64,000 nt of DNA from an uncultured Bacteroidales bacterium (GTDB lineage: Bacteria; Bacteroidota; Bacteroidia; Bacteroidales; Paludibacteraceae): positions 41,149 through 105,148 of the forward strand of contig CAIWCC010000269.1 of NCBI GenBank assembly GCA_903911085.1, in the 5' to 3' direction. The first letter of the stretch is position 1. Every line of letters starts with the position of its first letter. Positions 2,575 through 30,111 of the stretch are shown one piece after another. The notes under the pieces are model-generated. The model ran no database searches. It was given only the letters and a program-made list of their open reading frames with translations, and was not told the DNA's origin. A program made the position numbers and the translations under genes.

Positions 2575-4257
2575 ATGAAAAAGCACATTAAACTACTGAT
2601 TATCTACATATTCTGCACAGTAGTTGTACATACTTATGCATTGGCAGCTACTCCGGAATCATGTCGCACACCAGAGAATCAGGTTTTCCAGTTTATGCAA
2701 AGCGGAACCTGCACTGCCTGGGCTGATAGTTCCAGAACCAATGCAACGCTCTATCTCTGGATTCCCGAAAACTGCAAAAAACTACGCGGGCTAGTTATTA
2801 TGTGTACCAATGTGCCTGAGCACATGCTGGTGGGTCATGCAGCTATCCGCAAAGCCTGCGAAACAAATGATTTAGGAATAATCTGGAGCACGCCCTCTTT
2901 TATGAACTTTCGCAAATCCACCAAAGATGGAAAAACACTGAATATGGCATTGGAATACAAAACCACCGTGGACTTTCTACAACAAATGCTTTATGGACTG
3001 GCTGAAAAATCAGGTTACACCGAAGTGGCTACGGTTCCTTGGCTGCCCATGGGCGAATCGGGTCATTTACTCATGGTGGATGCATTAGTAGAGCAAAGTC
3101 CCGAACGTTGTATTGCCTGCATTTTTATAAAAAACAACCATATGCAACCCAAAAACCGTGATGTACCTACGTTGGTGGCTTTTGGTACTGCTCAGGAGTG
3201 GGGACAGGATAAAGTGGATATCCGTACCCGCTGGAATGATGTGGGCGCAGCATACGAAGGAATTCTCAATCAGCGAAAACAAAACCCAAACTGGCCATTG
3301 AGTTACATTATTGATGGTTCGAGCGGCCATTTTGACTGTTCGGAAAAGTTAGCACTCTATTTCGCCAACTACATTAATCTGATTACCAGGGCCCGATTGT
3401 CCGACGATGGTAGCGCAAAGTTGAAACCGCTCAATCTGAATAAAGGATATCTTGCCGATATGCCCGTTCCAGGTCATGAAAAACACCCGGCTACCGCTTA
3501 TTCCGAAGCAAAACCCGAAGCAATGTCATGGCCCTGGTTTTTGGACAAGGAAAGCGCGCTGGAAGCACAGTCTTTTGCGGCCATCAACTGGAAAGCTTCA
3601 ACACAAATTCCCGCATTTCTGAATGACAGTGGCAAAGTTGCGCCTTTTATTTTTAATGGAATTTCCAAACTGACTCCTTCGGACATGGGCGAAGATGGAA
3701 TTACTTTTACGGTGAAACCTGTATTGCTGGATAAAATTCCTTCAAATTTCACAGTAGGTGCAGGCGAAAAACTGGCTAAAACATCTGGAACACCAGTATT
3801 AGAATGGGTATGCGGGCAATATAAACCATTGGGAAATAATAAATTCCGTATTTCGCTTGACCGCTCGTGGCCAAATACTGCAAATTATATCGGTGTTCGA
3901 CAACAAGGCAACGACAGTATCCGAAGTATTTTTCAGCCTTGCGGTTTAATACTTCCCAAAAACAATTCAGGTAAACCTCAAAAAATCACTTTTGAAAAAA
4001 TACAGGATGTAGTAGCCGGAACAAAATCAATTCAGCTTTCAGCAACTTCGGATTCAGGTTTGTCTGTAGAGTTTTATGTAGTGGCTGGTCCTGCTGTTAT
4101 TGAAAACAAAAAACTTATCTTTACCAAAATTCCACCAAAATCGAAGTTCCCGATACAGGTAACTGTTGCAGCCTGGCAATGGGGACAGTCAAAAGAGCCA
4201 AAAATAAAAATGGCAGAGATTAGTAAACAGACGTTTCAAATTCTTCAAAACAAATAA
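2575..4257 (+). CDS. Secreted hypothetical protein (possible alpha/beta-hydrolase-like N-terminal half, Ig-like C-terminal region)
   Basis: ORF 2533-4257. ATG at 2575 is preferred because MKKHIKLLIIYIFCTVVVHTYALA is a signal peptide and this start removes the overlap with the upstream gene. PWLPMGESGHLL could be a degenerate nucleophile elbow. No family recognised with certainty. Confidence 0.5.
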   Translation: MKKHIKLLIIYIFCTVVVHTYALAATPESCRTPENQVFQFMQSGTCTAWADSSRTNATLYLWIPENCKKLRGLVIMCTNVPEHMLVGHAAIRKACETNDLGIIWSTPSFMNFRKSTKDGKTLNMALEYKTTVDFLQQMLYGLAEKSGYTEVATVPWLPMGESGHLLMVDALVEQSPERCIACIFIKNNHMQPKNRDVPTLVAFGTAQEWGQDKVDIRTRWNDVGAAYEGILNQRKQNPNWPLSYIIDGSSGHFDCSEKLALYFANYINLITRARLSDDGSAKLKPLNLNKGYLADMPVPGHEKHPATAYSEAKPEAMSWPWFLDKESALEAQSFAAINWKASTQIPAFLNDSGKVAPFIFNGISKLTPSDMGEDGITFTVKPVLLDKIPSNFTVGAGEKLAKTSGTPVLEWVCGQYKPLGNNKFRISLDRSWPNTANYIGVRQQGNDSIRSIFQPCGLILPKNNSGKPQKITFEKIQDVVAGTKSIQLSATSDSGLSVEFYVVAGPAVIENKKLIFTKIPPKSKFPIQVTVAAWQWGQSKEPKIKMAEISKQTFQILQNK

Positions 4258-13751: not shown

Positions 13752-16700
13752 TTATTTAAGACTAAAATTCACGCCAACTAAAAATGTGGCAACTTTTGGA
13801 TAAAAACTTGGGTAGTCTATACCTGAATTCCAGACACTAGTAGTGTTTACCTCTGGATCTTGTCCGCTATAGGCTGTTACAGTTAATAAATTTTGACCAG
13901 TAACATATGCTCTAAGTGATTGTAAATACTTATTGTTTTTTAATGGAAGACTATATCCAATTGTCAGATTATCAAGTTTTAAGTACGATCCATCTTCAAG
14001 ATAATAATCACTAAAATTCTTCTTATTTGTATATATTCCACCAGCGACATCTTTCATGAAAATATTCATCGACTCAGTTGGGGTGTCAGGTTTTGATGGT
14101 TCATTTGGTCCATAAGCCCAACGTGTAACATTAAGAATTTTGTTTCCAACCACCCCACGGAAGAATGCAGTAATATCAAAATTCTTATATTTTATAACGT
14201 TGTTCCAACCATATGTAAACCAAGGTTGTGCGTTTCCAATTGCTTGACGTTGATTTTCAGATGGATCAGAAGTAAATCCGCCTGCTGGAGTGCTGAACAT
14301 CCAAGTACCATCTGATTTAAATCCATAAAATTTATATCCATAAAAAGTTCCTACAGTCTCACCTTCTACCAGAATTTGAGTATTTGTATTCATAATTCCG
14401 TTCTCGCCAATACCGCCAGAAGTTGTCTGTTTGTAGTTAAATCCTTTTGTAGGATCAGACAATTTAGTAATTGTGTTTTGATTAAAAGCAATTGTTGGTG
14501 TTGAAATCCAAGTTAAATTTTTTGCCTGAAGAATTACAGCCGATAATGCCAACTCTACACCATAACTATCCATTTGGCCTGCATTAGCCAAAAGTGTTGG
14601 AAACTGGTATGGAGGTGTTGGAACTTCATAATCCCATAATAAATCGCGTGTTTGTCTGTAATACATATCTAAACTACCATAAACTCTTTTCTTTAAAATT
14701 GAATAATCTAATCCAACATTATATTCGTATTTTTTCTCCCAGCGTAAGTCTGGATTTTCATTTTGTGCTACTCCATAAGTATAAACCCAAGCTCCATTAT
14801 ACCAAAATGTACCTCCATTTGACATCATAGCAATAGAACGTAAATCAGAAGCTAGATTATTGCCAGTAACGCCATATCCAATTCTTAATTTCAAATCATC
14901 GATGTTTTTCACACCTTTCATAAACTCTTCACTAGTAATTCTCCAACCTAAACTCAAAGCAGGGAAAATACCCCATTTATTGTTTACTCCAAAGCGTGAT
15001 GAACCTTCGCGGCGAACCGAAGCCGATGCCAAGTAACGATCTTTGTAATTATAATTAGCACGTCCAAATACTGCGGCTAAGGTGTTTGAATTACGAAACG
15101 ATGATACATTTAAGTATTTCTTTGTAGCATCTCCATTTCCAATCTGAAAATATTTTGCATCGTCTGTAGGAAAGCCTTTATTTGAAATATCAGAACCATC
15201 ATATACAAAATTTTGGTAGGAAAATCCAGCAACAGCTACAAGAGAATGACCTCCCGATAAATCGGCAATATAATCACCTGTGAGTTCAAAAAGTTTGTTT
15301 TGATTTGAATCAGAGGTTCTTCCAGCCTTTCCAGATCCCGATAAATCGGTGTTTACTAAACCATTATACCAGTATCTATTATTATCACCCTCTTCCAAAG
15401 CAGCAAAAGTAGATAACTTTAGTCCTTTTATGCTTTTAATATTAACTGAGGCTTTTATAGATCCACGGAAATAATTTCCCGACTGATTTGATTCACGCTG
15501 ATTCATGTTTTCTACCGGATTTGATAAACCAGTTCCAGTCGGTTTGTAATAACCATTAGCGGTAGATGCATCGTATATAGGGTAGGTTGGATTCATGATA
15601 GCAGCTTGTTTGAAGTCGCCAGTAAAGTAATCATTTTTATAATCCATATACGAAAAATCATATTGTAAATCTAACCAGCCATTAAGAGCTTTTTGATTTG
15701 CGGCTAATTTTGCAATAATTTCCTGACGATTTGAGACTTTGGCTATTCCCTCGGCATTTTTAAAATTTATAGCGGCTCTATAATTAAAATCTTTTGCGCT
15801 TCCCGAAATTGCTAAATTGTGATTGTGTGTTAATGCGACATCCCTTGTTAATGCTCCCATCCAATCGGTATTGAAAGTATTTCCTTCAGGGTCAGAAAAC
15901 AATACTGGAATTACTTTTCCATTTGAAATGCTGGAAAGATTTCTAAATTGATCAGGTGTTGCCATGCCGTTATTATCGTTTCTAATCGATGTTGAAACGT
16001 AGCCTGAATATTCTACATTTGTAACTGCAACTTCAGAATAATTTCCACCTCTTTTTGTTGTAATAATGATAACACCGTTTGTTCCACGAGTTCCATAAAT
16101 AGCTGCTGCTGATCCATCCTTTAAAACATCCATTGATGCAATTTCATCAGGTGAAATATTATCAATATTATTTACAGGGATACCATCAACTATAAATAGT
16201 GGAGAAGTTCCCGCACCTTTGTCAAGGGTCGAAAATCCACGAATTTGAATGTTATAGCCTGTATTTGTTGGGTCGCTACTTGTTTTGATAACATTTAAAC
16301 CTGCAACTTTTCCTTGTAATAAGCCTATTGGACTTGTTTTTATACCAGCGTTAAAATCTTCTGCTTTTATAGATGCAACAGAACCCGTTACTTCTTTCTT
16401 TTTTTGCGATCCATAGCCAATAGCTACTACTTCACCCAGTGCTACTGCATCTTCTTTTAATTGAATAACTAGATTTTTTTTACCTGCTATAGGCATTTCT
16501 ACGGTAAGATAGCCAACATATTTGATTACCAATGTTGCATTTGGAGCTACGGAAAGAGTGAATTGTCCATCAAAATTTGTAATTGTACCATTGGATGTGC
16601 CTTTTTCAAAAATATTGGCACCAAGAATTGCTTCTCCATTGCTGGCATCTTTTACTATTCCGGTAATTGGTGTTTTTTGAGCACTTAGTGTTGTGCTTAA

Positions 16701-16763
16701 AACTAACATCACAAGTAGAGCTACTAAAGCTCGGAATTTTAGTTTAAAGTCTCTGTACTTCAT
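13752..16763 (-). CDS. susC: SusC-type TonB-dependent outer-membrane transporter
   Basis: 1003 aa. Signal peptide. Carboxypeptidase-regulatory-like start ITGIVKDASNGEAILGANIF. Plug segments VVAIGYGSQKKKEVTGSV and IASMDVLKDGSAAAIYGTRGTNGVIIITTKRG. Long beta-barrel region. Followed by susD. Confidence 0.9.
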   Translation of the reverse strand: MKYRDFKLKFRALVALLVMLVLSTTLSAQKTPITGIVKDASNGEAILGANIFEKGTSNGTITNFDGQFTLSVAPNATLVIKYVGYLTVEMPIAGKKNLVIQLKEDAVALGEVVAIGYGSQKKKEVTGSVASIKAEDFNAGIKTSPIGLLQGKVAGLNVIKTSSDPTNTGYNIQIRGFSTLDKGAGTSPLFIVDGIPVNNIDNISPDEIASMDVLKDGSAAAIYGTRGTNGVIIITTKRGGNYSEVAVTNVEYSGYVSTSIRNDNNGMATPDQFRNLSSISNGKVIPVLFSDPEGNTFNTDWMGALTRDVALTHNHNLAISGSAKDFNYRAAINFKNAEGIAKVSNRQEIIAKLAANQKALNGWLDLQYDFSYMDYKNDYFTGDFKQAAIMNPTYPIYDASTANGYYKPTGTGLSNPVENMNQRESNQSGNYFRGSIKASVNIKSIKGLKLSTFAALEEGDNNRYWYNGLVNTDLSGSGKAGRTSDSNQNKLFELTGDYIADLSGGHSLVAVAGFSYQNFVYDGSDISNKGFPTDDAKYFQIGNGDATKKYLNVSSFRNSNTLAAVFGRANYNYKDRYLASASVRREGSSRFGVNNKWGIFPALSLGWRITSEEFMKGVKNIDDLKLRIGYGVTGNNLASDLRSIAMMSNGGTFWYNGAWVYTYGVAQNENPDLRWEKKYEYNVGLDYSILKKRVYGSLDMYYRQTRDLLWDYEVPTPPYQFPTLLANAGQMDSYGVELALSAVILQAKNLTWISTPTIAFNQNTITKLSDPTKGFNYKQTTSGGIGENGIMNTNTQILVEGETVGTFYGYKFYGFKSDGTWMFSTPAGGFTSDPSENQRQAIGNAQPWFTYGWNNVIKYKNFDITAFFRGVVGNKILNVTRWAYGPNEPSKPDTPTESMNIFMKDVAGGIYTNKKNFSDYYLEDGSYLKLDNLTIGYSLPLKNNKYLQSLRAYVTGQNLLTVTAYSGQDPEVNTTSVWNSGIDYPSFYPKVATFLVGVNFSLK

Positions 16764-16943
16764 GTATTAAATTATTTAAGGTTAATAAAATAATCACTCG
16801 AAAATTTCAGATTATATTCATAACAAAAAATAAATTGTATGATAAAATAATTTGTTTTTTATTAAGTGATTTGTGACGGCAAAATTATAGTATTAATGTT
16901 TATTTGCAATCTGTAAATAATAAATATAAATAGAAAAAACCCT

Positions 16944-16955
16944 GCAAACGTTTGC
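16944..16955. promoter_or_regulatory. LacI-family operator (perfect 12-bp palindrome GCAAACGTTTGC within TGCAAACGTTTGCGA)
   Basis: Same 15-nt string as at 10659-10673. Located in the 422-bp divergent region between susC (start 16763, minus strand) and the LacI-family gene (start 17186, plus strand). Confidence 0.7.
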
Positions 16956-17185
16956 GAAAGATATTTGAAATAATAGCGTAAATAATTTTTTATTCGGATA
17001 AAGTAATTTACTTTTGCAAATGATATTGAATTTGAAAGTCAGAAAAAAACGGATTGAAAACAAAATGTTTGTATAACTATTTGTATATTAGACTTTATTT
17101 GTGGTTTGGGTATTTGTTGACCTAAAAAATATGTCTATATTCTGGTTTTGTTGGATAATTCTTTTTAACCTTAAATATTTACTTT

Positions 17186-18196
17186 ATGAATAAACCACAA
17201 ATTACGATTAAGGACATTGGTCGTGCGCTAGATATTTCACCCTCTACGGTTTCTCGTGCTTTGAAAAATCATCCTGATATAAGCCAAAGCACTAAAGATG
17301 CGGTAAATAAATATGCCAAGGAATTTAATTATAAGCCCAATACATTGGCATTGAGCCTTCGTATGAGTAGAAACAATACTATTGGCGTAATTGTTCCTGA
17401 AATCAACAATTATTTTTTCTCTTCAATTCTTTCTGGTATTGAGCAAGTTGCCAACGAAGGCGATTTTAATGTAATTCTATGTCAGTCAAGCGAAAGTTAC
17501 GAGAAAGAAGTGCGAAACACCCAAGCCTTAATAGCTACACGCGTGTCGGGTGTGTTGGCTTCTTTGTGTAAACATACCACCAATTACGATCATTTTCAGG
17601 AAATTATTGATAGCGACATTCCTCTAGTGTTTTTCGACCGCATTTGCATTGGTATAAGTACCGACCGTGTGGTTGTTGACGATTATAAAGGCGCTTTTGC
17701 TGCTGTTGAATATCTTATTCAGACGGGCTGTAAGCGAATTGCATTTTATAGTTCTCCTTTTCATTTAGAGATTTCTAAGAATCGGAAAAATGGATATATG
17801 GACGCCTTACGTAAATATGGATTGACTGTTGATGAATCATTGATTCGTGTCTGCGATACTCGTGAAGAAGCCATTATTATCACTCCCGAAATACTTGATA
17901 GACCCAACCGCCCCGATGGTTTTTTTGCCATAAATGATCATTGTGCAGCTGGAATTCTTTATGCAGTTAAATTAGCCAAACTTCGCATTCCTCAAGATAT
18001 TGGTATTTTTGGTTTTTCGGATGGAGAACTAGCAAAAGCCTGTGATCCAATGCTTAGTACGGTTGAACAACATGGATACGAAATGGGAAAAAATGCTGCC
18101 AAATTACTGCTCGACAAAATTAATGGTGTAACACATGGACAATATACAAATAAGATTGTAAAAACGAATTTGATTATTAGGGGGACGACAAGATAA
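17186..18196 (+). CDS. LacI-family transcriptional regulator
   Basis: N-terminal HTH TIKDIGRALDISPSTVSRALKN. The rest resembles a periplasmic-binding-protein-like sugar-binding fold (IGVIVPEI, DGFFAINDHCAAG). 336 aa. Confidence 0.9.
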   Translation: MNKPQITIKDIGRALDISPSTVSRALKNHPDISQSTKDAVNKYAKEFNYKPNTLALSLRMSRNNTIGVIVPEINNYFFSSILSGIEQVANEGDFNVILCQSSESYEKEVRNTQALIATRVSGVLASLCKHTTNYDHFQEIIDSDIPLVFFDRICIGISTDRVVVDDYKGAFAAVEYLIQTGCKRIAFYSSPFHLEISKNRKNGYMDALRKYGLTVDESLIRVCDTREEAIIITPEILDRPNRPDGFFAINDHCAAGILYAVKLAKLRIPQDIGIFGFSDGELAKACDPMLSTVEQHGYEMGKNAAKLLLDKINGVTHGQYTNKIVKTNLIIRGTTR

Positions 18197-18200
18197 ATTT

Positions 18201-18310
18201 GTTTCGCGTTCCGTGTTTTGCGTTCCGTGTTTTGTGTTCCGTGTTTTGTGTTCCGTGTTTCGCGTTCCGTGTTTCGTGTTTCGCGTTCCGTGTTCCGTGT
18301 TCCGTGTTCC
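18201..18310. repeat. Tandem heptamer array A: 16 units of GTTYYGY
   Basis: Read directly: GTTTCGC GTTCCGT GTTTTGC GTTCCGT GTTTTGT GTTCCGT GTTTTGT GTTCCGT GTTTCGC GTTCCGT GTTTCGT GTTTCGC GTTCCGT GTTCCGT GTTCCGT GTTCC. The array starts 4 nt after the LacI-family stop. Confidence 0.95.
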
Positions 18311-18385
18311 AGTTTTTTGAAAATCTATAATAATTTAGAGAACTTAAATAATTCATAATTATAACTATAACTATATAACTTAAAA

Positions 18386-18805
18386 ATGGCAACCATTCAA
18401 AGATTTGAAGATTTAGAAGTTTGGAAAAAATCACGTGAAATTTGTAAATTTATTTTTCAATTGACCATTAGAGAAAATTTTTCAAGAGATTATTCCCTTA
18501 AAGATCAGATTAGGCGTTCTAGTGGTTCAGTTATGGACAATATTGCAGAAGGATTTGAAAGAGAGGGAAATAAAGAACTTGTTAATTTCCTATCAATATC
18601 AAAGGGATCAATTGGTGAAGTTCGGTCTCAAGCATATAGGGCATTTGATTATGGGTATATTAATCAAGAAGAGTTTGATTTTTTGATAAAAGAAACTGTT
18701 TCATTATCAGAAAGATTAGGTAAATTTATTAGTTATCTAAGAAGTTCAGATTATAAGGGGGTTAAATTTAAGAAAGAAAATGATAATAATAAGAAAGATG
18801 AATAA
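18386..18805 (+). CDS. Four-helix-bundle protein (23S rRNA intervening-sequence protein family, PF05635/TIGR02436-like)
   Basis: 139 aa. [35 protein letters not shown] and [16 protein letters not shown] are the hallmark helices of this family. Confidence 0.8.
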
Positions 18806-20132
18806 CTCTAAACAAGGAAGCCAAAACGCGGAACGCGAAACGCGAAACGCAAAACCGAAATTGACTTTTTGGCAAATATGGAACATGAGTTTTGGATTCC
18901 TTGGAATTCAATTTGGATTTGCATTGCAGAATGGAAATGCTTCTCGAATATTAATGACTTTTGGTGCTGATGTGCATAATTTAAGTTGGTTCTGGTTGGT
19001 TGCACCTATTACCGGAATGATTATTCAACCAATAGTGGGTTATTATAGCGATAAAACATGGACAAAGCTTGGTCGCCGTAGGCCTTATTTTTTAGTTGGT
19101 GCTATTCTTACTAGTATTGCATTAATACTAATGCCTAATGCACCACATTTGTCTAATTTTTTGGCACCAATGTTTGTTGGGGGAGGTTTATTGATGATTA
19201 TGGATGCATCCATAAATATTTCGATGGAACCATTTCGGGCTTTAGTTGCCGACAAACTACCTGAAGAACAGCATACTTTGGGATTTTCGGTTCAAACATT
19301 ATTAATTGGAATTGGAGCTGTTATAGGATCATGGTTACCTTATATTTTGGGCAATTGGTTTGGAATTTCAAAAGATGCTGGCGCAAACGGACTTGTACCA
19401 GATAATGTAACATATTCTTTTTATTTTGGTGCATTTGTACTGATAACAACTATCTTATGGACTATATTCAGTACCAATGAATATCCACCAGAACAAATTG
19501 AAGTTGAGACTGTAGCAGCAAAAAATGAAAAGTTTTTTATTCCACCAGTAATGATACAATTATTGTTGGTTCAATTTTTTTCGTGGTTTGCACTATTTTC
19601 TATGTGGGTATATACCACACCAGCAGTGGCTTTAAAGTTTTTTGGCACTACGGATGCTAATTCTGTGGCTTTTCAAGAAGCTGGCAATTGGGTTGGAATT
19701 TTATTTGGAGTTTATAATGGAATTTCAGCAGTATTGGCTTTATCGTTGCCTGTTTTGACTCGCAAATTTTCAAAAAAAGTAACACATTCCATAGCATTAT
19801 TCGTTGGTGGATTAGCATTGCTTTCATTTCTGATTATTAAAGATGCTGATTATCTTGTTATTCCAATGATTGGAATTGGAATTGCTTGGGCTAGCATTCT
19901 GGCTATGCCTTACGCAATGCTTGCAAATTCTATTCCACCCAAAAAGATGGGTATGTATATGGGGCTATTTAATATGTCGATAACAATTCCCCAGATTGTA
20001 AGCGGAATTTTTTCAGGATTAATTTTGAAATATTTATTTGCAGATAATCCAATTTTGTGTATTGTAATGGCGGGTGCATCATTTATTATTGCTAGCGGTT
20101 TGTCGTTGCTGATTAAAACCCCTAACCCCTGA
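18798..20132 (+). CDS. Sugar MFS transporter (SLC45/GPH-like, putative maltose/maltodextrin importer)
   Basis: Polytopic hydrophobic profile. [30 protein letters not shown] and LGRRRPYF are typical of the sugar MFS transporters found in flavobacterial alpha-glucan loci. The start is ambiguous: ATG 18780, ATG 18798 or TTG 18861. Confidence 0.8.
18821..18855. repeat. Heptamer array B (reverse complement of array A units)
   Basis: CCAAAAC GCGGAAC GCGAAAC GCGAAAC GCAAAAC. Starts 15 nt after the four-helix-bundle stop codon and lies within the 5' end of the transporter ORF. Confidence 0.9.
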
Positions 20133-20166
20133 AGAAGAATAAGTTACAATTCCCGAATTTTGGTAA

Positions 20167-20201
20167 GCAAAACACAAAACGCAAAACACGAAACGCAAAA
20201 C
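20167..20201. repeat. Heptamer array C (same orientation as B)
   Basis: GCAAAAC ACAAAAC GCAAAAC ACGAAAC GCAAAAC. Ends 10 nt before the GH65 ATG at 20212. Confidence 0.9.
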
Positions 20202-20211
20202 ATTTTTTATC

Positions 20212-22518
20212 ATGAATAAATACCTACAAACTGACCCTTGGTGCATTATAGAAGAGGGTTTTCATCCCAACAAGCAATTGGTGTCCGAAAGTATTTTTAG
20301 TTTGGGAAACGGTCATATTGGTCAACGTGCTAATTTTGAAGAGTATTATTCGGGCGAAACAATGCTTGGGTCGTATATTGCTGGAATTTATTTTCCGGAG
20401 CGAGCCGAACGAGGTAATTGGAAAAATGGATATTCGGATGCCAACGACAAAATTGTAAATGCGCCAAATTGGACTGGAATTAGCGTCCGTTTGAATGATG
20501 ATAGGCTCGATTTGGCAGAATGGGATGTGCAAAATTTCAGGCGTGTATTGAATATGCGTGAAGGATTCTTGGAGCGTACATTTGAGGCAATTTCTTCAAA
20601 AGGACATAGAATTCAAGTGTCGGTAAAAAGGTTTTTGAGTATGGCCGAAACTGAAATTGGAGCTATTAGTTATTCTGTTAAATCATTGAACTATGAAGGA
20701 CGAATTTCGTTTTTACCGCTTATTGATGGAGATGTGAAGAATAAACATACCAATTATAATGAACAGTTCTGGAATATGTTACAGACCAAAACACAACAAG
20801 ATGTATCACATATTTGGGTTCAAACTCGAAGAATGGATTTTCATGTTTGTGGAGCATTGACATATGTTTTGTATAAAAACAATGAGCAGCTGAAAGTAAA
20901 TCCAACTAAAATTGAGAAAGAAAAAGTGGCTGGTTTTAGTGTTGGAACCGATGTGCGCATTGGTGATACTGTTTGTTTGAATAAATATGTAGCCATTATA
21001 AGTTCGCTCAATCATCCTCGCGAAGAACTTACAGAGCGTGCTTGTAATCTGGCACTTGCAGCTAAAGAAAAAGGTTGGAATCAACTTTTTGAAGAGCATT
21101 CAGCTGTGTGGGCAGAAAAATGGTTACAATCTGACATAATAATTGATAGTGATTTGGAGGCACAGCAAGCCATTCGTTTTAGCATTTTTCAGCTCAATCA
21201 GACCTATAATGGCGATGATTCTCGACTGAATATCAGCCCAAAAGGTTTCACTGGCGAAAAATATGCTGGTGCTACACGATGGGATACTGAAGCAACTTGC
21301 ATTCCATTTTATTTGTGTACTTCGCCTCAAAACGTTGCCAAAAACTTGTTGCTATACCGTTTCCGTCATTTGCCAAAAGCCATTCAAAATGCTCAGAAAT
21401 TTGGGTTTATAAATGGAGCAGCGCTTTTCCCAATTGCTACTTTTAATGGTGTGGAAAGTTATAACGAATGGGAAACAACTTTTGAAGAAGTACACCGAAA
21501 TGGCATTATTGCCTTTGCTATAAGCAATTACATTCGCTATACTGGCGACGAAAACTATTTAGCCGAAGCTGGTTTAAAAGTTTTAATTGGTATTTCTAGA
21601 TTTTGGGCTCAGCGTGTTAATCTATCGTATGAAAAGAAGAAATTCGTAATTCTAGGTGTTACTGGACCTAATACGTACGAAAATAATGTTAACAATAACT
21701 GGTTTACAAATTATATTGCCGTTTGGACACTTCAATATACTATAGAATGTGTAGAAAAAGTGAAGCAATCAAATTTTAGAGCTTTTGAAGATTTATCGCA
21801 AGATATAAATTTTGCCAATGATGAAATTTTTCTATGGAAAGATATTATTGAAAATATGTATTTACCCGAAAATAAAAAACTTGGTATAATTCTGCAACAA
21901 GATGGATTTTTGGATAAGACATTAACTAATGCTGCAGAAATTCCAGAAACGCAACGACCTATTAATCAGCACTGGACTTGGGACAGAATTTTACGTTCTT
22001 CGTTTATTAAGCAAGCCGATGTTGTTCAAGGACTTTATTTTTTCGAGGAAAACTTTGATAAAGATACTATTCGTAAAAATTTTGAATTTTATGAACCACT
22101 TACTGTTCATGAATCTTCACTATCGCCATGTATTCACTCCATAGTGGCTAGTGCTGTAGGCAATAAACAAAAAGCTTACGAATTATATCTTCGTACAGCA
22201 CGACTCGATTTAGATGATTACAATAATGATGTAGCTGATGGCCTGCATATTACAAGTATGGCCGGCACTTGGTTAACCATTGTACAAGGCTTTGGAGGAA
22301 TGAGAGTGAAAGACGGAAAACTGCATTTCAATCCACAAATTCCCGAGAAATGGAATGCATTTGCGTTTAATATCCTATTTAGAGGAAATCAATTAAATAT
22401 TCGAGTTGAAAAGCAAAAAGTTATTCTTCATAACATTAAAGGTGAGGGAATTGACTTGTATGTTAATGCGAAAATAATTCATATCAAAGCCGAAAGCCAA
22501 GTAGAATTTGTTATTTAA
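20212..22518 (+). CDS. GH65 glycoside phosphorylase (maltose phosphorylase-like)
   Basis: 768 aa. The N-terminus DPWCIIEEGFHPNKQLVSESIFSLGNGHIGQRANFEE is typical of GH65. The length and the starch-locus context fit maltose/kojibiose/trehalose phosphorylases. Confidence 0.85.
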   Translation: MNKYLQTDPWCIIEEGFHPNKQLVSESIFSLGNGHIGQRANFEEYYSGETMLGSYIAGIYFPERAERGNWKNGYSDANDKIVNAPNWTGISVRLNDDRLDLAEWDVQNFRRVLNMREGFLERTFEAISSKGHRIQVSVKRFLSMAETEIGAISYSVKSLNYEGRISFLPLIDGDVKNKHTNYNEQFWNMLQTKTQQDVSHIWVQTRRMDFHVCGALTYVLYKNNEQLKVNPTKIEKEKVAGFSVGTDVRIGDTVCLNKYVAIISSLNHPREELTERACNLALAAKEKGWNQLFEEHSAVWAEKWLQSDIIIDSDLEAQQAIRFSIFQLNQTYNGDDSRLNISPKGFTGEKYAGATRWDTEATCIPFYLCTSPQNVAKNLLLYRFRHLPKAIQNAQKFGFINGAALFPIATFNGVESYNEWETTFEEVHRNGIIAFAISNYIRYTGDENYLAEAGLKVLIGISRFWAQRVNLSYEKKKFVILGVTGPNTYENNVNNNWFTNYIAVWTLQYTIECVEKVKQSNFRAFEDLSQDINFANDEIFLWKDIIENMYLPENKKLGIILQQDGFLDKTLTNAAEIPETQRPINQHWTWDRILRSSFIKQADVVQGLYFFEENFDKDTIRKNFEFYEPLTVHESSLSPCIHSIVASAVGNKQKAYELYLRTARLDLDDYNNDVADGLHITSMAGTWLTIVQGFGGMRVKDGKLHFNPQIPEKWNAFAFNILFRGNQLNIRVEKQKVILHNIKGEGIDLYVNAKIIHIKAESQVEFVI

Positions 22519-28553: not shown

Positions 28554-28667
28554 AATTATTAAACCCGAGGTTGTAGTATTCTAATTAATAACAGTGTTTT
28601 TTACTTATTATATTCTTAACTTCATATTTTCTTATATTCTTATATTCTTATACTTCTTATTAATATT

Positions 28668-29168
28668 ATGATTCAACTAAAAAACAGTCAATTAACCGCA
28701 GCAGCCCAAAAAGGCATGGATGAATTTTTACAAGTTTTTACTAATGCGTATTTGGAAACAATTGGTGGAAACTTGACTGCCGAAAACATGTCGAAATTGA
28801 ACGGATTACAACATACTTTGTTAGCACATCGTTTTTTTCAAGACGAAATGCGTGATGGTGGTTTTGTTCAATTAATTCAGAATGGTTATGGGGGATATAT
28901 TTTTCAAAATCCTTTTGCCAAAGCCATTAAACAATTTGGTGCTGCTGAATTAGCTCGAATAATTTATAAAGCTAAAGAGATTTATGACCCTAATAAAGTT
29001 GAGTTAGAACGAGAAACCACAGAGGCGGAATTTAATGCTATGTATGTTGATTTTGAGGCGTTTGACGATTTGGAAGAAATGTATTTTGAAATTGAAGAAC
29101 AACAAACTGCCATTATTGCAGCCTATGTAGACGAAAATATCGCCGATTTTGCAGAAGTTGTTGATTAA
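28668..29168 (+). CDS. DMP19/DUF4375-like protein
   Basis: 166 aa, acidic C-terminus. The core LLAHRFFQDEMRDGGFVQLIQNGYGGYIF resembles the NGGFxQ motif of DUF4375/DMP19-family proteins. Recognition is from memory. Confidence 0.45.
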   Translation: MIQLKNSQLTAAAQKGMDEFLQVFTNAYLETIGGNLTAENMSKLNGLQHTLLAHRFFQDEMRDGGFVQLIQNGYGGYIFQNPFAKAIKQFGAAELARIIYKAKEIYDPNKVELERETTEAEFNAMYVDFEAFDDLEEMYFEIEEQQTAIIAAYVDENIADFAEVVD

Positions 29169-29226
29169 TAGTTCTATAACTGTTTCTTTTTAATTATTGA
29201 AAAATTCCATTAAAACACAATTAATT

Positions 29227-30111
29227 ATGGCAGAATTTGTCGAAAAATATATAAATCCGTTCACCGATTTTGGATTCAAGAAACTATTTGGAGAAGAATT
29301 AAATAAGGATTTGCTTTTGGACTTTTTAAATGAATTGCTAAAAGAAGAGCAAGGTAAAATTCTGAATTTGACTTATCTGAAAACTGAACAACTTGGCACT
29401 ACTGAGATTGATAGAAAAGCGATTTTTGATTTGTATTGCGAAAATGAAAAAGGAGAAAAATTCATTGTAGAATTGCAAAAAACAAAGCAAAATTTTTTCA
29501 AAGACCGAAGTGTTTATTATTCCACTTTCCCTATTCGTGAGCAGGCCAAACGCGCTGACTGGAATTTTGAACTAAAGGCCGTGTACACCATTGGAATACT
29601 CGATTTTGTTTTTGATGCAGACAAAGATGAACCTAACAAATTTCGCTACGATGTTAAGCTTATTGATAAAGATACACAAAAGGTGTTTTATGATAAATTG
29701 ACATTTATTTATTTGGAAATGCCCAAATTCAATAAAACTGAAGACGAGCTTGAAACAAGATTTGATAAATGGTTGTTTGTGCTTCGCAATTTACATAAAC
29801 TTGACCGAATTCCAGATAAGCTCCGTGAAATGATATTTGATAAATTATTTGAAACAGCAGAGATTGCAAAATTTACAATTGATCAAGTGCATTCATACGA
29901 GGATAGTTTAAAGTATTATCGCGATTTGAATAACTCCATAGATACTGCCAGAGATGAAGGAAGAATCGAAGGTGAAATAAAAGGTCGTATTGAAGGTGAA
30001 ATAAAAGGACTAATTAAAGTTGCCAAATCAGCATTGTCCAAAGGAATTCCAATAAAAGACATATCAGATTTAACAGGATTGTCGGAAGAAGAAATAGGTA
30101 ATTTACTTTAA
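29227..30111 (+). CDS. Rpn-like PD-(D/E)XK nuclease-family protein (putative transposase/recombination-promoting nuclease, PDDEXK_2-like)
   Basis: The ORF track starts at TTG 29197; ATG 29227 (MAEFVEKYINPFTDFGFKKLFGEE) matches the usual N-terminus of this Bacteroidota family. D...E-x-Q core IFDLYCENEKGEKFIVELQK. The C-terminal tail RIEGEIKG-RIEGEIKG...GLSEEEI is typical of Rpn-like proteins. Confidence 0.7.
   Translation: MAEFVEKYINPFTDFGFKKLFGEELNKDLLLDFLNELLKEEQGKILNLTYLKTEQLGTTEIDRKAIFDLYCENEKGEKFIVELQKTKQNFFKDRSVYYSTFPIREQAKRADWNFELKAVYTIGILDFVFDADKDEPNKFRYDVKLIDKDTQKVFYDKLTFIYLEMPKFNKTEDELETRFDKWLFVLRNLHKLDRIPDKLREMIFDKLFETAEIAKFTIDQVHSYEDSLKYYRDLNNSIDTARDEGRIEGEIKGRIEGEIKGLIKVAKSALSKGIPIKDISDLTGLSEEEIGNLL

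Follow-up and report, generated by a model that had tools for sequence, protein, structure and literature searches.

How does a gene whose family was named for intervening sequences (IVSs) of 23S rRNA come to stand inside a sugar-utilisation operon, enclosed by inverted arrays of 7-nt repeats? The question is raised by a small four-helix-bundle (4HB) gene of the family PF05635/TIGR02436 (S23p/Avd fold), which lies between the genes of a LacI-family regulator and a major facilitator superfamily (MFS) sugar transporter of an uncultured Bacteroidales bacterium (contig CAIWCC010000269.1). The window, to which all coordinates refer unless a relative (L number) is named, is the whole 64-kb (64,000 nt) stretch of DNA that was analysed. 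Judged by comparison with related loci, the gene and its arrays very probably form an inserted cassette, and this cassette is, by the same kind of comparison, one of a large class in Bacteroidota and Cyanobacteria. The explanation that we favour, and consider probable, is a promoterless IVS-like insertion whose two repeat arms pair in the read-through transcript of the host operon. The computational analysis establishes the anatomy of the element, its insertion status, the swapping of cassettes, the co-variation of their arms, the positions of the arms and purifying selection on the encoded protein.

The cassette is ~650 nt long and consists, in this order, of arm A, an AT-rich spacer, the 4HB gene and the A/C-rich arm B, all read on the plus strand. 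Its left boundary is the LacI stop codon (18194-18196). Array A, the 5' arm (18201-18312; G/U-rich in the transcript), starts 4 nt past this codon, as had been noted before. The original prediction described it as 16 GTTYYGY heptamers at 18201-18310; the location stands and 15 of the units are exact (18201-18305), but the sixteenth is degenerate (GTTCCAG). The spacer (18313-18385) leads to the start codon of the 139-aa 4HB gene (18386-18805), and 15 nt past the stop of this open reading frame (ORF) begins array B, the 3' arm (18821-18855). Array B comprises five RCRRAAC heptamers (CCAAAAC, GCGGAAC, GCGAAAC, GCGAAAC and GCAAAAC) that are the reverse complement of A, in agreement with the earlier description. 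The gene had also been described as boxed in by its arrays, which is correct in that A and B flank it, but B lies within the MFS ORF, and a third array is found beyond the MFS gene. This array C (20167-20201, plus strand; five RCRRAAC heptamers, also complementary to A) occupies the spacer between the MFS stop (20132) and the start of the next gene (20212), ends 9 nt before that start, and is part of the same system as A and B. Tandem Repeats Finder (TRF) reported period-7 arrays at 18200-18310 (15.9 copies, also described with period 14 at 89% match), 18824-18860 and 20167-20202. A pattern of three GTTYYGY units, at most 2 mismatches being allowed, matched 20 times in the 64-kb window, always within A, B or C, compared with 0.04 matches in shuffled sequences.

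The host locus is of the starch/maltodextrin (alpha-glucan) utilisation type, as had been recognised: SusD/SusC on the minus strand, followed by LacI, MFS, GH65 and GH13 genes. The upstream host of the cassette is the LacI-family gene (17186-18196, plus strand; Pfam LacI plus Peripla_BP_1/3/4). Downstream, on the same strand, follow the MFS gene (18798-20132; Pfam MFS_1; its likely start, ATG 18798, is discussed below) and the GH65 maltose phosphorylase gene (20212-22518; Pfam GH65 N/m/C).

Evidence that this element was inserted comes from relatives of the locus. Homologues of the ORF that are 65-99% identical belong mostly to Paludibacter-like genomes, where they hold the same placement, LacI-4HB-MFS, and are again flanked by arrays. 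The array units vary by lineage yet match across both sides (in L011, GTTCTGC upstream and GCAGAAC downstream). Arrays were present at every occupied LacI-MFS locus, none of the relatives carrying the gene at this junction without them. Five other relatives (L116, L127, L142, L143 and L196), with orthologous LacI (74-94% aa identity) and MFS genes, have no 4HB gene, and are empty sites of the kind that the original prediction had proposed as a check. In these, 3-49 nt separate the LacI stop from the MFS start, and no array of at least three units was found in the whole locus, MFS-GH65 spacer included. Arrays in that spacer are present in the occupied L003, L011, L093-L101, L115 and L126 and absent from all the empty-site relatives; the presence of arrays therefore follows that of the 4HB gene. 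As judged from these alignments, the insertion is exactly at the LacI-stop/MFS-start junction of the alpha-glucan operon, and the change at individual nodes may be a gain or a loss.

Cassettes are also exchanged at this junction. Between L099 and L100, the LacI genes are 99% and the MFS genes 96% identical in DNA, while the 4HB proteins are only 62% identical and the arms are octamers in one and heptamers in the other; the alignment is identical up to the LacI stop, diverges across arms and gene, and is identical again from MFS codon 3. One type of cassette has GTTYCGG upstream and CCGRAAC downstream and encodes a 143-147-aa protein. A second has octamers, GATTYGAW upstream and CTTCAAAT downstream, and encodes a 134-aa protein that is ~62% identical to the heptamer-type protein. 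This octamer type is also found in the closest MFS relative of the window, L115 (LacI 95%, MFS 93% aa identity; cassette at L115 1961-2420), where an in-frame TAA interrupts the 4HB gene at codon 31. A third, nonamer type is carried by L126, with an upstream arm of 376 nt (AGTTTGAAG x 42.6, at 1524-1899) and ten complementary 9-mers downstream. Arm length varies between strains as well, and is the cause of the spread in the distance from LacI stop to 4HB start, which ranges from 95 to 263 nt among contigs with an identical LacI protein.

One empty site deserves separate mention. L196 (LacI 94% aa; 3509-3590) has a single GTTTCGT directly after the LacI stop, and the 5' coding region of its MFS gene contains 2.7 B-like AAAACRC units (encoding MNTKTQNTKPK). 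These units may, from their placement, be the footprint of a lost cassette or the seed of an array B, and we do not treat L196 as an untouched target site.

Several further observations concern the same loci. The MFS-GH65 spacer of L115 keeps heptamer units of the window type and may be the relic of an earlier heptamer cassette, and L126 has further 7-mer arrays beyond its MFS and GH65 genes. The corresponding spacer is a mosaic of several 7-/8-mer arrays in L093, L098, L099, L100, L101 and L107; those of L101 (heptamer cassette) and L107 (octamer cassette) both hold ACGAAAC-type and TCTTCAAA/TTATCAAA-type units. In L133 (2300-2420) a 228-nt LacI-MFS spacer contains CATCACC-type arrays and no 4HB gene, and may represent a solo arm left after gene loss. 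The LacI-MFS spacer of a more distant relative, L158 (2290-2480), is filled by G/C-rich palindromes (CCCCCTGAAGGGGG ... CCCCCTTCAGGGGG), with neither a 4HB gene nor tandem arrays. Metagenome contigs stop at the arrays (L095, L096, L108) or hold N-runs there (L104, L105), which suggests assembly failure or length heterogeneity within populations. Finally, the gene trees of the locus conflict. The window LacI is 88-92% identical to those of L003, L011 and L013, and its GH65 84-87%, while the GH65 of L002 is incomplete and 65% identical. The window MFS (18885-20129) is only 58-61% identical to those of L002, L003, L011 and L013, but 85% identical to that of L014 (LacI 84%). These identities suggest that recombination inside the locus has exchanged the MFS allele of the window.

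The same anatomy was found well away from this operon. We sampled the family by protein similarity alone, in one scan of GTDB species genomes, and took the best 80 of at least 597 matches; these 80 loci (50-76% identity) are from Bacteroidales, Flavobacteriales, Chitinophagales, Cytophagales and a few other groups, and are biased to Bacteroidota relatives of the query. Their gene contexts are almost all different. Such arrays accompany other 4HB genes too, an association on which the original prediction depended: 64 of 88 genes (73%) have a period-7 array of at least three copies within 150 nt, 41 of them on both sides, and with periods of 6-9 admitted one or more arrays accompany 70 of 79 genes. 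The density of arrays is 1.76 per kb near 4HB genes and 0.132 per kb elsewhere, a 13-fold enrichment. Upstream and downstream arms correspond cassette by cassette: the upstream unit differs from the reverse complement of the downstream unit, after minimising over rotations, by a mean of 1.14 mismatches within a cassette, compared with 2.65 between different cassettes (permutation p <= 5e-5). Where a locus contains a second 4HB copy, this bears its own matching arm pair (L052, L068). Inverted array pairs without an ORF exist as well, at times with the same unit as a nearby cassette (L064).

The position and composition of the arms are equally regular. Upstream arms are rich in T (43%) and G (24%), downstream arms in A (46%) and C (24%). 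From the upstream stop codon to the start of the upstream arm the median distance is 2 nt (82% within 10 nt), and from the end of the downstream arm to the next in-frame ATG it is 12 nt. Both neighbours are co-directional with the 4HB gene at 57 of 67 loci (57% expected, p = 7e-7). The Bacteroidetes -7 box (TAnnTTTG) is found upstream of 3 of 79 4HB genes, where shuffles predict 6.3 and control ORFs have it in 15% of cases; being depleted, and present in the L093/L100 type only, it does not support a promoter borne by the cassette as a general feature. The window spacer 18313-18385 contains no such box, and consensus scans for sigma-70 promoters and intrinsic terminators gave matches no more numerous than in shuffles.

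Cyanobacteria were sampled by tblastn against plasmids only. Ten 4HB copies were examined on plasmids of Nostoc, Anabaena, Calothrix, Aulosira, Geminocystis and Pseudanabaena; short tandem arrays flank all ten and are inverted in eight, with upstream/downstream units such as GGGAACA/CTGTTCC, GAGTCAG/CTGACTT, GGGAAAA/TTTTCCC and GACAGGT/CTGTCAC. A split pseudogene (L197) has an array downstream only, and on the Pseudanabaena plasmid (L110) the pair of arrays closest to the gene is direct (AAAAGCT, AAAAGCC), with an inverted array further upstream. In two plasmids, L110 and that of Anabaena sp. 90 (L113), the 4HB gene with its long heptamer arrays is located between cas6 and cas4. The occurrence of this family inside cas operons had been reported earlier (PMC3936711) and is explained because array-flanked 4HB genes lie between these two genes. 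Taken with the empty sites and the whole-cassette swaps, the recurrence of the element in a second phylum and in unrelated operons by the dozen supports the earlier proposal that an IVS-like cassette of stem plus ORF had colonised an mRNA context.

We know of no function described for the ORF family named after 23S IVSs since the early 1990s, the distant diversity-generating retroelement (DGR) protein Avd apart. Membership of the window ORF, suggested originally from its translation, was confirmed with profile hidden Markov models: PF05635 matches at E = 1.2e-32 (112.7 bits, cut-off 33.8) and TIGR02436 at E = 2.3e-30 (105 bits, cut-off 24). An AlphaFold2 (AF2) monomer model has four long helices (pLDDT 85.6), and its top Foldseek matches are 2GSC (TM-score 0.75 query- and 0.88-0.91 target-normalised) and 2RLD, which a profile search against PDB sequences also recovers. 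These are XCC0516 of Xanthomonas and BT_0352, both members of the family outside DGRs. Members of the family crystallise as pentamers. Among the matches of the protein, which are limited to PF05635/TIGR02436 and four-helix-bundle structures, there was no transposase family, and a scan of viral_contigs with the family alignment returned no relatives carried by phages. At the LacI-MFS locus dN/dS between orthologues is 0.04-0.2, and where dS is unsaturated it is 0.125 (L093 vs L100) and 0.17 (L099 vs L094). To judge from these ratios the 4HB protein is under purifying selection and not decaying. These values, together with the lack of any sign of recent transposition (see below), make the selfish mobile cassette of the original prediction doubtful.

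We next consider what the arms do. The predicted fold of the 681-nt stretch pairs A with B and encloses the ORF (minimum free energy -156.8 kcal/mol, z -2.7), so that the stem expected earlier is obtained. The predicted duplex energies are -61.2 kcal/mol for A:B and -50.5 kcal/mol for A:C, and over 18190-20215 the predicted fold has both B and C paired with the long array A. Across cassettes the arm duplex energy has a mean of -34.6 kcal/mol, compared with -14.2 for shuffled arms, and per nucleotide it is -1.03 within a cassette vs -0.49 across cassettes (p = 6e-12). That the arms act by pairing with each other is quite probable. Whether they do so in RNA has, in our estimate, an even chance, and here the wobble argument gave no help. 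The original prediction had pointed out that all differences between units are transitions, which would keep many registers pairable in RNA. This is not supported, since no sense-strand bias was found: sense and antisense arm duplexes are equally stable across the family (21 vs 21 cassettes, Wilcoxon p = 0.76), and the antisense strand of the window locus folds about as well as the sense strand. Wobble asymmetry was accordingly rejected as a sign of RNA-level pairing.

The right-hand end of the cassette is translated, most likely, into the transporter. The ATG at 18798 overlaps the 4HB stop (ATGAATAA), and from there the MFS frame is open through array B, which has no start or stop codon because it contains no T; the conserved MFS N-terminus begins immediately after B. 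The same open frame, from an ATG that overlaps the 4HB stop and through array B, is found in all ten heptamer-type relatives. Between close strains the length of array B differs by 21 or 42 nt (L098 to L093; L100 to L101), and three heptamers encode 7 residues. Given the open frame through the T-free array and these in-frame length steps, array B is most likely translated, and would encode part of a low-complexity tail at the N-terminus of the MFS transporter. Translation of MFS appears, from this arrangement, to be coupled to that of 4HB and to pass through arm B, and therefore the stem and the ribosome traffic should interact. A contingency locus for phase variation of MFS was rejected: the units are imperfect, B is in frame at 10/10 loci, and its length steps are multiples of 21 nt.

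In the explanation that we favour, read-through of the host operon would transcribe the cassette, and the two arms would pair in the transcript into an imperfect duplex of 35-50 bp. This duplex would loop the cassette out, so that the upstream stop and the downstream start region would be adjacent again at the base of the stem, as they are without the insertion. By analogy with the IVS of Coxiella, the stem would likely be an RNase III substrate; that the enzyme does cleave it we propose only tentatively. At the window locus arm A could pair with B and C simultaneously. Since translation of MFS would begin at the ATG overlapping the 4HB stop and run through arm B, expression of the transporter could be tied both to translation of 4HB and to what state the stem is in. 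The pairing of the arms in RNA, the cleavage by RNase III and any effect on coupling are what we infer.

Several results weigh against this explanation. The equal stability of sense and antisense duplexes means that selection on the sense RNA, rather than on complementarity of the DNA, is not demonstrated. An RNase III cut inside arm B would separate the MFS start codon (18798) from the rest of its ORF, and therefore a simple excision model is awkward at the window locus. No period-7 array of at least three copies was found at 24 of 88 genes, and none at all (periods 6-9) at 9 of 79, while 99 arrays occur in 749 kb away from 4HB genes and array C lies outside the cassette. The right-hand boundary is not clean, as L196 already has 2.7 B-like heptamers in its MFS gene. 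Near-identical cassettes in different contexts were not detected in an all-against-all blastn of the cassettes of 95 genes with 250-nt flanks, which returned only orthologous pairs, and on this ground recent transposition was rejected; the swaps could have come from homologous recombination in the flanks.

The arms could instead work at the DNA level, the inverted arrays being ends that are used or produced by insertion, excision or exchange, and any RNA pairing being incidental. Hairpins or cruciforms on single-stranded DNA, template switching between the arms, or a recombinase supplied in trans would be possible routes. We consider both this role and these routes unlikely. A complementarity without wobble bias towards the sense transcript is compatible with such a role, as are three cassette types at one junction with sharp boundaries at the outer arm ends, and the footprint-like state of L196, where a lone A-type unit follows the LacI stop and the MFS start has 2.7 units of the B type. 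The hypervariable arm length between strains, the contig breaks at arrays and the existence of inverted array pairs without ORFs point the same way. The cassettes, however, have neither a recombinase nor a transposase associated with them, their neighbours being ordinary operon genes, and recent copies in new contexts were not found (95 genes). The strict polarity of the arms, G/T upstream and A/C downstream, with the co-orientation and the placement at stop and start codons, argues for a constraint linked to transcription or translation, and the Coxiella repeats serve as a site of RNA processing (PMC4990558).

It is also conceivable, though we hold it to be rather improbable, that the arrays are putative binding platforms for the 4HB protein, gene and repeats forming one protein-nucleic-acid system. 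By analogy with repetitive extragenic palindromic (REP) sequences and their associated transposases (RAYTs), and with the same low probability, the protein could regulate its own operon or create, maintain or spread the arrays. Among LacI-MFS loci arrays, including C, occur only where the 4HB gene is held, and the solo arrays near a cassette are closer to its unit than to the units of other genomes (mean distance 1.85 vs 2.53, p = 2e-6). Yet cassettes with proteins 60-85% identical do not agree in unit sequence or even in period (7, 8 or 9), and sequence-specific recognition is therefore hard to square with the data; in L052 and L068 two cassettes 4 kb apart in one genome have different units. 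Purifying selection on the protein agrees with a binding role, whereas L115 retains its arrays despite the premature stop in its 4HB gene. The fold matches that of Avd in the DGR ribonucleoprotein (4DWL, 8UB7), and lineages with a heptamer excess, Nostoc and Xanthomonas (the source of XCC0516), also have 4HB genes (repeat literature: PMC4692102, PMC2700814, PMC4679880).

Slippage-prone simple-sequence repeats (SSRs), acting as neutral filler or as a phase switch of MFS and only incidentally associated with 4HB genes, are a very improbable source of the arrays. Among long SSRs, those with heptanucleotide units are the most frequent class in many bacteria (Mrazek 2007, as cited in PMC4679880), close strains differ in copy number, and array B is coding, so that single 7-nt steps would shift the frame. 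Against this stand the 13-fold enrichment at 4HB genes, the cassette-specific reverse-complement relation of the arms and the empty sites without arrays of at least three units. Imperfect units suppress slippage, and at the ten heptamer-type loci, all in frame, array B changes by +21/+42 nt, the opposite of an on/off switch. Lastly, the cassette as a DGR remnant with the 4HB gene as its Avd component is effectively refuted: the structural model does match Avd (4DWL), but identity to Avd is 6%, the family matches are to the non-DGR XCC0516 and BT_0352, the neighbours are LacI and MFS with no adjacent reverse transcriptase, and the only repeats in 17900-20500 are the heptamer arrays, with no template/variable repeat (TR/VR) pair.

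A wider proposal, which we think improbable and draw by analogy with RAYTs and the paired REP elements (REPINs), is that the partner so far missing for heptamer tandem repeats throughout bacteria is the 4HB protein, which would bind, build, stabilise or spread arrays of 7-9-nt units. If this were true, the ORF-less pairs and solo arrays would be offspring, with the cyanobacterial short tandemly repeated repetitive (STRR) sequences, the GGGAATC pairs of Xanthomonas and the paired sites of Geobacter as candidates; 23S rRNA IVSs would be a special case, insertion into rRNA; and the long-noted excess of heptanucleotides in certain lineages would be explained. One solo array lies elsewhere in the window: an 8-mer array (TTATATTC x 6.5, at 28608-28660), without an inverted partner within the window, ends 7 nt before the ATG of a DMP19-like ORF (28668-29168, PF14300), which is followed by a PDDEXK_2 transposase-like ORF (29197-30111). 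This region directly follows a GH13 gene.

Returning to the IVS-like cassette, its significance would lie in joining two or three old puzzles in one system: the 4HB IVS-ORF family, the heptamer repeats, and the presence of 4HB genes in unrelated operons, including those of cas genes. Cyanobacteria, Xanthomonas, Geobacter, Beggiatoaceae and some Bacteroidetes have an excess of heptanucleotide tandem repeats. Gene and repeats make up a single module bounded by stop and start codons. At one and the same operon junction this module has been gained, lost and swapped; it occurs in two phyla and resembles a bona fide IVS with a mapped RNase III site. If the arms do insulate or re-couple cistrons, this would be a new way for an insertion to persist in an operon without destroying it. 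In practical terms, the arms break assemblies, mislead the calling of downstream start codons and can add low-complexity tails to host proteins.

How does this module compare with known systems? Intergenic heptamer arrays have been published as cyanobacterial STRRs, as Xanthomonas GGGAATC and Nostoc GGGGAYT repeats, as TAACTGA repeats, including in Paludibacter, and as paired 7-9-mer sites of Geobacter metallireducens; convergent inverted pairs number 70 in X. campestris and 24, 21 and 8 in G. metallireducens, and the function of the arrays is unexplained in every case (PMC4692102, PMC2700814, PMC4679880). The window arrays fall within the definition of intergenic heptanucleotide tandem repeats (STRR/long SSR), a descriptive class that implies no mechanism. 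They share with the published arrays the intergenic tandem units of 7-9 nt, mostly between co-directional ORFs and near ORF ends. In those reports, however, the repeats are tied to no gene family, whereas the cassette arrays are complementary arms of 4HB genes, absent at empty sites and swapped with the gene. Apart from the description of the Coxiella IVS, no openly searchable full text that we found connects 4HB genes with tandem arrays at their flanks.

Mobile systems offer partial likenesses. Integron cassettes too carry a single ORF without a promoter, in the orientation of the host transcript, and replace one another at a fixed junction. The ends of the 4HB cassette are, however, inverted tandem arrays on both sides and not one imperfect 3' palindrome, a single cassette occupies each site, the sites are scattered through ordinary operons, and the neighbours are LacI and MFS rather than an integrase, so that an integron gene cassette was rejected. 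An insertion sequence (IS) or MITE (miniature inverted-repeat transposable element) was rejected as well, there being no transposase in or beside the cassette and no near-identical copies elsewhere (95 genes). The REP/REPIN and RAYT system likewise has one gene amid inverted copies of a short repeat, the same repeat forming ORF-less inverted doublets elsewhere. The cassette repeats differ from it in being tandem arrays with cassette-specific units, and the 4HB protein has no transposase match. Avd is a component of the reverse-transcriptase RNA-protein complex of DGRs (8UB7) and has the four-helix-bundle fold in common with the 4HB protein (TM-score ~0.68 query- and 0.87 target-normalised against 4DWL); at 6% identity it is unlike the closest relatives of the 4HB protein, XCC0516 and BT_0352, and no reverse transcriptase or TR/VR pair accompanies the cassette.

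The 23S IVSs of Coxiella burnetii and Leptospira likewise have an ORF of PF05635 between complementary, stem-forming ends, and short ORF-less IVSs parallel the ORF-less inverted array pairs. The Coxiella IVS, archetypal for the family, has a 28-bp terminal stem and, just 5' of its S23p ORF, 2-3 tandem GACAGAT heptamers whose number varies between strains; the 5' cut of RNase III maps to the first heptamer repeat (PMC4990558). Excision of IVSs by RNase III is described for Coxiella and others (PMC4990558). Gene, stem and heptamers are thus common to this IVS and to the operon cassettes, and strain-variable heptamers at a mapped RNase III site lend weight to the IVS likeness proposed at the outset. 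The window element has the predicted A:B stem enclosing an ORF that characterises ORF-containing IVSs, but it is not a 23S IVS proper, as it lies between the LacI and MFS protein genes and no Rfam family matched at E <= 1 in 16700-20400. The host RNA is an operon mRNA and not helix 25 or 45 of 23S rRNA, long tandem arrays of up to 376 nt make up the whole of the arms, the cassette is placed exactly between a stop and a start codon with its 3' arm translated in the next gene, and its ORF is under purifying selection, while that of Coxiella is decaying. Lacking the hallmarks of IS, integron and DGR, the element is an IVS-like, repeat-armed 4HB cassette at operon stop-start junctions.

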